Virus record (IMG/VR): IMGVR_UViG_3300037249_000225
Location: 1 to 36,157 of that record
DNA: 36,157 bases
DNA from: a virus
Direction: 5' to 3' (one strand)
Below the pieces are notes generated by a model. That model was not told where the DNA came from, made no database searches, and saw only the letters and a list, made by a program, of their open reading frames with translations. The first letter of the stretch is position 1; each line of letters begins with the position of its first letter. Positions 13,639-15,481 of the stretch are shown here, in pieces. The position numbers and the translations under genes are program-made.

Positions 13639-13818
13639 TTATTGTTTTCCTATATAGTCCAAAATGCTTTCACACATTATACCCGCACTATTTGGCTTGT
13701 AATTTTCATCTAAGCAGTGAAGCGTTAGATAGTCACCAACCTTGTCTTCTATTTGATCTAAATCAGAATTAGGGTCAATCCCGATAGACTTCAAAAAATT
13801 AATTTGTTCCCTATTCAT
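13639..13818 (-). CDS. Small acidic protein (59 aa), candidate immunity protein for the MuF C-terminal toxin domain
   Basis: ATG at 13818 follows SD GGGGAGG and overlaps the MuF stop by 8 nt. The gene is AT-rich like the MuF C-terminal domain. Function is inferred from position only. Confidence 0.5.
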   Translation of the reverse strand: MNREQINFLKSIGIDPNSDLDQIEDKVGDYLTLHCLDENYKPNSAGIMCESILDYIGKQ

Positions 13819-15481
13819 TGAGATCAACCTCCCCATATTTTTTCAGCTTATCTTTACCGGTTGGCCAAGCCGTTGGGATTACTCCAGTATCAGGATTTAT
13901 ATTAACTGTTGTGGTTTTCCCAATAAATCTTTGACTTGGTCTACCCAATTCATCAACAACAGTATCACGAAAATGGATAGGGTGTGTCAATGCATTGATC
14001 ATTCCTTCAACACTCAGTTCCCTTTGTTCTATGCGCTCATTTACATGCTGAGATAATTCAGTAACAGTAACTCCACTTGTTGTTATTGTTCCTATTATAC
14101 CACCATTCTCGGCAGTTGTCAACTGTTCCTGCGAGTTTTCTGCCGCTGACTTTTCCGCTGAATTCTCCGTCGGTGTTTGCTCGGCTGCTTTATCGGCATT
14201 CTCCGGAAGTGCGTTCATCTCCGCGATCTGCCGGTCAAGTTCCCGCTCGATATCCTCTATCGAACGCCCGTCGAGAAGCCTGTCGATCTCCGCCTGAACA
14301 TCCTCGTCAGACTCCATGACCGCGCCTATCGTACAGCAGCAGGTCGGGTGCATCGGTGGGAGATTAACGCCCACAACCGCATCGGCTATCTTGAAACGCT
14401 GCCCGTCGAGATCGTCGCAGGTGTCACAGGCTCCGTTGCTCTCACCCGCAGACATGAATTCGTACTCGTCAAATCCCGCGTCGGCAAGCCCTTTGAGTTC
14501 TGCCTGATTGGTGCAGTAGGTGTGCTCTGTACGCACTACCCGTGCCGCCTGATACATACCCGAGCCGAATTTATCGCGTATCTCCGCTGCCATTTCGGCT
14601 TCGCTTGCACCTGTCAGCTCGCCGTTCAGCAGTACCCTTTTGACTTCCCGCGAGAGCTCGTCCGTGTTGTCCCAGATGCGTTCCGAGAAGTTCACACCTT
14701 TCCAGTCGTGGTCGATTATCTCATTTACCGCCTTTGTGTTGGTCAGTGCAAAGCTGTCCATTATCCCGCGGTCGGTCGTCGGCGTGAAGTCCCGTATCGG
14801 CTCATCTGCCCGGGGCATCGTGTTTATCGGTGTAGGCGCTTTTGCGGGAGCCGCCGCAGGATCGAGGTCGATAACAACAGCTTCGGAAGGCGGCAGGCGT
14901 TTTGCTTCATCGAGCGTGATGTTGTACGCCTTTTCGATCTCTGTTTGCAGGAACCGCCGGTCAGCGGCGATCTCCCCGCGTGCTATGTTTTCAAGCGTTT
15001 CCTGCGCGTTCTTCGCGATCTGCTCGGCACGCTGCATCCGGTAGCGATACGCCGGCGCGGATATCTCCGCGAGTATGCGGGTCTTTTCCTCGCTGTCGGT
15101 CATGCTCTCCGCAATTGTGCGGAGGTTGTCGGCAATGCTGCGGTCGTAAACTACGTGTCCGAGAAGATCTTTGGCGTCCTTCTGCGTCAAGCCAAACGCG
15201 CTCTGATAACCCGCAAAAACGTTCTGCACCTGCCGCGCAAGTTTCTCGGCAGCGTGTGCATACGGGACCGCGAGAACTGCGGCAACACGTTCGGTCTGCA
15301 CCAGCGCGGCATCATCGAGTATCGCGAGACGTGCCGTCCAGTAAGCCTTGTTAGCCTTCATCAGAGCTTCTGCAATTTTCGCCCGTGTGAGCGGCTTTGA
15401 CTTTTGCAGCTGCCGCAGGGTCTCCGCTATTATCCGGTCATATTCTTCATCGAGCTGCGCCCTTACCTCGTCTTCATTCAT
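13811..15481 (-). CDS. MuF/SPP1 gp7-family minor head protein fused to a C-terminal ~95-aa toxin-like domain
   Basis: MuF core: RVVRTEHTYCTNQAE...CDTCDDLDGQRF...NLPPMHPTCCCT. It is followed by a low-complexity linker (AEQTPTENSAEKSAAENSQEQ). The final domain is LSQHVNERIEQRELSVEGMINAL...GRPSQRFIGKTTTVNINPDTGVIPTAWP. Confidence 0.8.
   Translation of the reverse strand: MNEDEVRAQLDEEYDRIIAETLRQLQKSKPLTRAKIAEALMKANKAYWTARLAILDDAALVQTERVAAVLAVPYAHAAEKLARQVQNVFAGYQSAFGLTQKDAKDLLGHVVYDRSIADNLRTIAESMTDSEEKTRILAEISAPAYRYRMQRAEQIAKNAQETLENIARGEIAADRRFLQTEIEKAYNITLDEAKRLPPSEAVVIDLDPAAAPAKAPTPINTMPRADEPIRDFTPTTDRGIMDSFALTNTKAVNEIIDHDWKGVNFSERIWDNTDELSREVKRVLLNGELTGASEAEMAAEIRDKFGSGMYQAARVVRTEHTYCTNQAELKGLADAGFDEYEFMSAGESNGACDTCDDLDGQRFKIADAVVGVNLPPMHPTCCCTIGAVMESDEDVQAEIDRLLDGRSIEDIERELDRQIAEMNALPENADKAAEQTPTENSAEKSAAENSQEQLTTAENGGIIGTITTSGVTVTELSQHVNERIEQRELSVEGMINALTHPIHFRDTVVDELGRPSQRFIGKTTTVNINPDTGVIPTAWPTGKDKLKKYGEVDLNE

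Follow-up and report, generated by a model that had tools for sequence, protein, structure and literature searches.

Organization of the MuF locus

The subject of this work is a gene for a minor head protein of the MuF type, together with the small open reading frame (ORF) that overlaps its 3' end, in the virus record IMGVR_UViG_3300037249_000225. The window, meaning the whole stretch of DNA that was analyzed, is the complete 36,157-bp record with terminal repeats. Head genes lie on the minus strand in the order TerL (16850..18118), portal (15481..16848), MuF (13811..15481), scaffold (11318..11917) and major capsid (10205..11302), and the portal is closest to portals of Streptococcus and other Firmicute phages. 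The window also encodes an integrase (33270..34304) and a helix-turn-helix (HTH) repressor (32755..33132), which by gene content mark the phage as temperate, as an earlier reading of the same DNA (the original prediction) had held. The features that concern us here are:

13811..15481, minus strand: gene for the MuF minor head protein, 556 aa, with a C-terminal toxin-like extension (ORF list, PF04233, PHROG 115, TIGR01641)
14192..15481, minus strand: MuF core, aa 1–430, GC 57% (alignments; the protein of the related locus L092 ends here)
14105..14191, minus strand: low-complexity linker rich in acidic residues, Ser and Ala, aa 431–459, ending in EN-x-G-I-I (translation)
14094..14122, minus strand: candidate sigma-70 promoter TTGACA-N17-TATAAT, matching 12/12 consensus positions and carrying the extended TG (consensus scan)
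13814..14104, minus strand: C-terminal domain (CTD), aa 460–556, ~97 aa, a divergent DUF4258/Ntox49-like predicted RNase of the BECR fold, GC 38% and GC at third codon positions (GC3) 23% (family alignment, Pfam on relatives, AlphaFold2 (AF2), Foldseek)
13828..13832, minus strand: Shine-Dalgarno sequence GGAGG, 9 nt 5' of the ATG of the small ORF (read from the sequence)
13639..13818, minus strand: 59-aa acidic three-helix protein, candidate cognate inhibitor, or immunity protein (ORF list, homologues, AF2, nonsynonymous divergence, dN)

The head protein has the canonical MuF core that the original prediction described. PF04233 (Phage_Mu_F) is matched at aa 279–385 with an E-value of 1e-12 (score 49.2 bits, cut-off 29.6), TIGR01641 (SPP1 gp7) is matched with 81.6 bits, and PHROG 115, minor head protein, with an E-value of 3e-63. 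The protein continues for about 170 aa past the end of the PF04233 match. The linker, AEQTPTENSAEKSAAENSQEQ, is found in the 556-aa translation, as is the domain sequence that had been placed after it.

A predicted RNase domain at the C-terminus

The CTD belongs to a large family. When 1.84 billion representative sequences were searched exhaustively with phmmer, homologues were found in 643 clusters at 50% identity with E<=1e-3, 151 of them at 1e-10. The match ends a few to ~20 residues from the C-terminus in all of the 150 proteins listed, which range from 64 to 825 aa. The carriers that were sampled are MuF1, MuF2 or VG15 minor capsid proteins (10/10), and in a separate search with the CTD all 45 matches were MuF-type capsid proteins. 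In a word-indexed search among candidates of 57–177 aa, the CTD by itself brought up 4 proteins only.

Assignment of the domain to a family came from its relatives. Of 18 non-redundant family members, 16 match PF14076 (DUF4258) at E<1, the best of them with an E-value of 1e-6, and no other family recurs. Two members that are 49% identical to the window CTD (P0055 and P0073) score 28.0 and 27.9 bits against a PF14076 gathering score of 25. The window CTD, which is itself below the gathering threshold, is best called a divergent sister group of PF14076. No PBECR sequence model appears among the Pfam-A matches of the 18 members at E<1, and scans of the window CTD and the small ORF with Pfam, NCBIfam, PHROG and PADLOC gave no usable match. 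In the literature, DUF4258 is placed near Ntox49, in the colicin-like BECR group.

Structure prediction gave the same class. The AF2 model of the CTD, which was built on the alignment of 18 sequences, has a mean confidence (pLDDT) of 83.6 and consists of helices at residues 23–30 and 36–44 of the domain followed by strands at 60–65, 69–73 and 82–85. A Foldseek comparison, one of the checks proposed with the original prediction, returned BECR RNase toxins as the top matches in the PDB. These are CdiA-CT NC101 (5i4q, probability 0.99), which is an EF-Tu-dependent tRNase of E. coli; the RNase domain of colicin E5 (3ao9, probability 1.00; also 2dfx, 2djh and 2fhz); and RelE (1wmi).

Across the 18 divergent members H479, R487, S516, G521, T525, V526, N529, G533 and T541 are invariant, and R483, R518, F519, T537 and W539 are nearly so. 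The His in the first helix and the Thr near the C-terminus fit the active-site pattern that Iyer et al. (PMC5512222) gave for phage BECR domains, in which the C-terminal position may be Thr or Ser. The ratio of nonsynonymous to synonymous divergence (dN/dS) of the CTD is 0.11 against its counterpart in L001, the closest relative, and this value indicates purifying selection. The original prediction had called the domain a DUF4258/RelE-like RNase. That assignment is accepted here, on sequence comparison and modeling, at the level of family and fold; it does not extend to Pfam membership of the window sequence itself, which falls below every Pfam threshold.

The overlapping small ORF

The ATG of the small ORF lies at 13818..13816 and the TAG stop of the MuF gene at 13813..13811, which gives an overlap of 8 nt. 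The protein is acidic, with a pI of 4.3 and a net charge of −6.4, and its relatives have pI values of 4.05–4.3. Coordinates, pI and the GGAGG agree with the 59-aa acidic ORF, 8-nt overlap and strong Shine-Dalgarno sequence of the original prediction. An alternative start at the in-frame ATG at 13836, which would give 65 aa, is without a Shine-Dalgarno sequence, and the 59-aa start is the one kept in L001.

Homologues of the small protein fall into 76 clusters at 90% identity, all of them unannotated. Against the L001 copy dN is 0.12, with synonymous divergence (dS) saturated, and the small ORF, like the CTD, is under purifying selection. The AF2 model is a three-helix bundle with a pLDDT of 97.3, and neither this model nor a Pfam scan revealed a DNA-binding domain. 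A Foldseek search of BFVD matched solely uncharacterized siphovirus proteins, which are probably members of the same family. By its conservation and its predicted fold, the small ORF is a real protein-coding gene and not a chance frame.

Linkage of the two genes was measured in 85 loci that encode the CTD, using a hidden Markov model built of the small protein. A homologue starts within 20 nt of the stop of the CTD gene in 83 of the 85, and the other two loci end at a contig edge; the pairing is therefore 83/83 where there is downstream DNA. The linked gene that the original prediction had proposed as an immunity candidate is thus found 3' of the CTD gene in every testable locus. The loci contain 35 distinct CTD/small-ORF pairs, and these sit on about nine unrelated N-terminal backbones, which include several kinds of PF04233 protein, PF06152 proteins and a truncated, stand-alone form.

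In the indexed assembly collection, one small-ORF variant turns up in 5,265 blocks. In this abundant variant, seen in L008–L010 (3127–3731; contigs of 240–275 kb), the CTD is called as a stand-alone gene of 139 aa that follows a separate gene of 290 aa. Its IMG/VR relatives, such as L035, have a single frame of 490 aa. The contig form may be a MuF gene that is split or decaying within a resident prophage and has kept the toxin, the inhibitor and the junction promoter described below.

Exchange of the domain on a shared backbone

The same MuF backbone, at 53–70% identity, ends in different ways in related phages. In L001/P0002 it carries the CTD of the window, and in P0003 (787 aa) the MuF part is followed by a zincin-like HExxH metallopeptidase and then by a CTD of the window type. 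L085 has an unrelated CTD of 170 aa with a downstream ORF of 137 aa (4371–4800 with 4742–5155), L086 has another unrelated CTD, containing the motif HNHPDG...S..D, with a downstream ORF of 65 aa (1331–1847 with 1816–2013), and in L092 the protein ends with the core itself, the linker, CTD and small ORF all being absent ahead of the scaffold gene. Over the MuF core (aa 1–430), identity to relatives with other CTDs or with none is 60–70%. The comparison with other CTDs, or with none, rests on L085, L086 and L092, and the searches for backbone relatives gave 3 and 4 loci. All of the extended versions switch directly after the EN-x-G-I-I junction, which is kept in five proteins with the same backbone, whatever the CTD. 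The original prediction had spoken of a swapped C-terminal domain, and one backbone is indeed found with this CTD, with two unrelated CTDs or with none.

No Pfam match was obtained for the CTDs or the downstream ORFs of L085 and L086, which are candidates for new toxin/immunity pairs. The L086 motif recalls JAB/MPN metalloenzymes. The metallopeptidase is seen again in P0197 (825 aa), a fusion of portal, MuF, metallopeptidase and CTD with weak Pfam matches to Peptidase_M90 and an ATLF-type zincin; in P0003 and P0197 this enzyme may serve to release the C-terminal domain.

Composition changes at the same point. GC falls from 57% to 33–38% over 13639–14100, which covers the CTD and the small ORF, and GC3 in the window is 65% right up to the junction and 23% beyond it. 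In six lineages the CTD and small ORF have a GC of 33–44%, against 50–59% for the MuF core.

The question arises of whether the domain does anything catalytic. It might be a dead RNA/DNA-binding or structural appendage, as has been proposed for phage Mu gp30 with its inactive BECR domain, and the small ORF might then encode an assembly chaperone or be an unrelated gene of the head module. This would fit with the fact that DUF4258 is without a biochemically characterized member, with the inactive PBECR versions that Iyer et al. note on MuF proteins, and with structural matches that are weak in E-value. Against it, the His of helix 1, two Arg and the C-terminal Thr are invariant or nearly so across the 18 divergent members, and the domain is foreign in composition and exchangeable for unrelated CTDs. 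In addition, neither the CTD nor the small ORF is needed for head assembly, because L092 makes the same head module without both. An inert appendage is, on balance, a very improbable explanation.

A candidate promoter at the junction

The site of exchange may carry a second signal. The codons at the junction, cag-TTG-ACA-act-gcc-gag-aat-ggT-GGT-ATA-ATa, encode L-T-T-A-E-N-G-G-I-I and at the same time spell the candidate sigma-70 promoter listed above. Sites with at most one mismatch to the consensus number five in the 36 kb, where 0.16 would be expected, and none of 100 shuffles reached five. The other four sites lie at 29711–29739 (plus strand), 32607–32635 (minus), 32721–32749 (plus) and 33221–33249 (minus), and have an extended −10. 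Three of them adjoin the HTH repressor and integrase genes, one is near 29.7 kb, and all have the TGNTA-AAT form of the junction site; they probably include the early and lysogeny promoters of the phage.

Promoter-like sites recur at the junction in other lineages, as follows:

L001: 12/12 at the junction, same CTD
L085, L086: 12/12 with a spacer of 16, different CTDs, −35 box on V-D instead of L-T and in another reading frame
L008: 11/12, −10 box on D-K-I instead of G-I-I
L071, L076: 11/12 at the junction
L002, L025, L070, L075: 10/12 at the junction

Counted by lineage, 11 of 20 have a site that scores 10/12 or better between −60 and +15 nt relative to the junction; the expected number, estimated from how densely such sites occur in these loci, is 0.38. 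The corresponding Poisson tail of 4e-13 overstates the case for a promoter, as the lineages are non-independent and the conserved peptide contributes. A better argument than this count is the −35 box, which is independent of reading frame. Two points count against the motif: the conserved G-I-I peptide could explain part of its recurrence, and it is absent in 9 of the 20 lineages and in the cultured Flavonifractor plautii phage Chenonceau. Rare ATA codons were considered as a sign of selection on the −10 box and set aside, since ATA is the commonest Ile codon in the late genes of this phage.

There is no in-frame ATG, GTG or TTG between the predicted start of transcription and His479. Transcripts from the junction promoter would span the 3' part of the CTD and the small ORF, and because no start precedes the predicted catalytic His in frame, their sole product would be the small protein. 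In L001 (5757–5779) and in the S. pyogenes prophage 315.4, a terminator stands directly 3' of the small ORF; promoter, cassette and terminator would there form a moron-like unit. Just past the stop of the small ORF in the window, at 13600–13632 (minus strand), is an imperfect hairpin, aacttacgcac-tcc-gtgagcgggtt, which aligns with the L001 terminator and has lost the T-run. Transcripts from the window's junction promoter may read through towards the leader of the next gene, which belongs to the DUF3800 family, and a terminator at ~13435.

From this arrangement, it is proposed that the EN-x-G-I-I junction is both a recombination joint and a strong sigma-70 promoter, which would express the immunity gene alone from the otherwise silent late operon of the prophage and would make lysogens constitutively immune to the RNase of sibling virions. 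We give this proposal even odds. A junction promoter for an inhibitor gene is unmentioned in the MuF-toxin papers examined, and a literature search found none.

The cassette also invites comparison with type II toxin–antitoxin (TA) or abortive-infection modules, one of which could have become fused to MuF by chance and act in the lysogen instead of through the virion. In favor of this, DUF4258 is classed with TA toxins of the RelE/ParE type, and the cassette, which adjoins another cargo gene (DUF3800), resembles a moron in having a promoter to itself and, in L001 and 315.4, a terminator as well. Yet, with no in-frame start between the internal promoter and His479, late transcripts could be the sole source of the toxin, and only in its MuF-fused form. 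Gene order also differs: here the toxin comes first and its partner second, whereas DUF4258 TA loci have the antitoxin first, with MqsA-like partners. The partner at this locus is a three-helix bundle without a DNA-binding domain, and no PADLOC model matches. The typical type II arrangement for DUF4258, in which a free toxin is preceded by or fused to an MqsA/HTH antitoxin, is not seen at the locus. A TA module acting in the lysogen is very improbable as an explanation.

Interpretation and relation to known systems

Taken together, these observations lead us to read the locus as a polymorphic toxin of the MuF type, carried by a temperate siphophage whose host is Gram-positive, and to assign this reading a probability of about 78%. 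In the terms of Iyer et al., it would be a small polyvalent virion protein. In this toxin, a portal-associated minor head protein would be joined by a flexible linker to an exchangeable BECR RNase domain of the DUF4258/Ntox49 lineage, with a cognate 59-aa inhibitor encoded directly after it.

The general design is that of the MuF polymorphic toxins described by Jamet et al. in 2017 (PMC5576092). Members of that family have an N-terminal MuF domain, which may be PF04233 (as in the window), PF06152, MuF3 or MuF4. As there, an N-terminal MuF head protein is encoded beside the portal gene in a temperate phage, one backbone bears variable CTDs, and a small ORF (<150 aa) lies downstream, which in the known systems is a protein inhibitor and here is a candidate for one. 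Jamet et al. counted C-terminal extensions of at least 100 aa; in the window the extension is ~170 aa, with a CTD that is predicted to have the BECR fold. Characterized members are Apk2 with IapK/Aph1 (PMC10083569, PMC12226406) and Bxa (PMC11699363), and adjacent protein inhibitors are present for both Apk2 (IapK) and Bxa. The bench-tested MuF toxins are of two kinds only, (p)ppApp synthetases and one ADP-ribosyltransferase. Unlike these, the window CTD is predicted to be an RNase from the DUF4258 lineage, and its candidate inhibitor comes from an unannotated family.

The closest precedent for the domain itself is the PBECR domain on MuF/portal polyvalent proteins (Iyer et al. 2017, PMC5512222). 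In both cases a predicted BECR RNase is C-terminal to MuF, and relatives have an intervening zincin metallopeptidase. The two differ in that the CTD has its sequence affinity to PF14076 DUF4258 and in that Iyer et al. describe no linked inhibitor gene.

Two named phages carry relatives of the cassette. In S. pyogenes prophage 315.4 (phiNIH1.1; L089), SpyM3_1229 is a MuF-type protein with a homologous CTD (44–47% identity, Chenonceau included) and an overlapping small acidic ORF, SpyM3_1228 (2724–2963, 79 aa, very acidic). A 10/12 promoter-like site with TG lies on N-D-I-I codons (2438–2466), and a terminator (2970–2996) follows the ORF. Its backbone is different, namely PF06152 (MuF2). A table in Jamet et al. 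(PMC5576092) lists this prophage as ‘Cter-Tox’. The second is phage Chenonceau, in which the CTD is found in the head morphogenesis protein WAK79799 and the small acidic ORF that overlaps it, WAK79800, is a member of the small-protein family (E 4.5e-22); it differs in that no junction promoter was found there.

Beyond phages, the arrangement resembles CdiA-CT(NC101)/CdiI and colicins E5 or D with their immunity proteins, where a small C-terminal RNase domain is borne on a delivery protein and the inhibitor gene is directly downstream. Here, there is no sequence similarity to these systems, delivery would be by the phage capsid instead of by secretion or uptake, and the inhibitor fold is unrelated to that of any solved immunity protein.

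The original prediction had suggested that the toxin/immunity pair may be new, and this holds only in part. The CTD family is large, with its 643 clusters, 315.4 is already listed as ‘Cter-Tox’, and MuF–BECR fusions are known (Iyer et al. 2017). What appears to be new, as judged from comparison of sequences, is an uncharacterized RNase lineage, an unannotated inhibitor family and, possibly, a regulatory detail.

Several results pull against the polymorphic-toxin interpretation. For the RNase assignment, the window CTD has no Pfam match even at E<10, neither the CTD sequence nor the family profile found a meaningful match among PDB sequences, and the Foldseek values for the CTD model are marginal (E ~0.01, TM-score 0.42–0.49). 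Gerdes (2025) places DUF4258 among the RelE/ParE-type toxins as experimentally uncharacterized. Among the carriers examined the CTD subfamily is found only on phage capsid proteins, all of the MuF type, and not on Rhs, CdiA or LXG toxins; a pool of domains common to other toxin families, which is a hallmark of polymorphic toxins, was thus not seen for this CTD. According to the literature, it is the wider DUF4258/Ntox49 group that occurs elsewhere. For the inhibitor, Foldseek against the PDB matched the small protein to generic helical bundles alone, all at E>2, and to no solved inhibitor fold, and SpyM3_1228 is not detectably homologous to the window's small ORF (hhalign probability 0.85%). 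The divergence of the small protein tracks that of the CTD no more than that of the backbone (Spearman 0.51 versus 0.48). In L008, for example, the small protein is 74% identical and the CTD 49%, and in L002 the CTD is 56% identical and the small protein 15%.

Proposed mechanism and purpose

If the locus is a polymorphic toxin, then its action can be outlined as follows. The fusion and the inhibitor would be produced together at a late stage of infection, with the 8-nt overlap and the GGAGG giving translational coupling, and binding of the inhibitor would mask the RNase in the producing cell. The MuF part would carry a few copies of the fusion into the capsid, a step that is proposed because of the analogy with SPP1 gp7 as summarized by Jamet et al., and the protein would exit with the DNA at the next infection. 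In a cell that is free of inhibitor, the RNase would then cut cellular RNA, be it tRNA, rRNA or mRNA, to toxic effect. The likely active site is formed by His479, Arg483, Arg487 and Thr537–Thr541.

The junction promoter, if active, would express the inhibitor alone, including in the prophage state, and lysogens would thereby resist toxin from sibling virions. Nuclease colicin operons have a comparable layout, in which a promoter within the colicin gene serves the immunity gene.

The same molecules might have another purpose. Following the idea of polyvalent proteins, the RNase could work for the benefit of its own phage and not against competitors, entering with the DNA as an early effector, cutting host defense RNAs or host and phage mRNAs and so aiding take-over or the choice between lysis and lysogeny; the small protein would then protect the producer during assembly only. 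The restriction of the CTD subfamily to phage minor capsid proteins, as would be expected of a phage-specific BECR clade, speaks for such a role, as does the polyvalent-protein architecture of the metallopeptidase fusions P0003 and P0197. However, it is hard to see what an inhibitor promoter independent of the late operon would be for if the producer had to be protected solely in assembly, and turnover of the cassette with tight linkage of the inhibitor is equally typical of competition toxins. We regard the early-entry role as a possible, though tentative, alternative. With respect to purpose, the evidence leans in two directions: the capsid-only CTD and the metallopeptidase fusions lean towards the proposal of Iyer et al., and the late-independent inhibitor promoter leans towards delivery into immune kin and hence towards that of Jamet et al., competition of lysogens with non-lysogens.

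The junction promoter would, if real, bear on what MuF toxins are for, as an inhibitor expressed in the lysogen makes sense only if the toxin comes from outside. It would then constitute the first direct genetic argument that a MuF toxin acts after delivery into other cells, and it would provide a rule for finding MuF immunity genes. Among phage sequences from the gut and the mouth, the pair of CTD and small protein is very frequent, and it is present in Chenonceau, a cultured phage. Because it is common and occurs in a cultured phage–host system, the pair is a practical entry point for work on DUF4258 biochemistry and on a new inhibitor fold.

Neighboring genes in the low-GC island

The cassette is the upstream part of a longer island of low GC:

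12487..14104, minus strand: low-GC island, 33–38% against 56–57% in the flanking head genes, comprising the CTD, the small ORF, the DUF3800 gene and a 56-aa ORF (composition)

The DUF3800 gene (12716..13546, minus strand) was assigned through Pfam and PHROG 30113 (E 8e-79), and the 56-aa ORF lies at 12487–12657 on the same strand. Both are cargo separate from the toxin cassette, and L001 carries the cassette without either of them.

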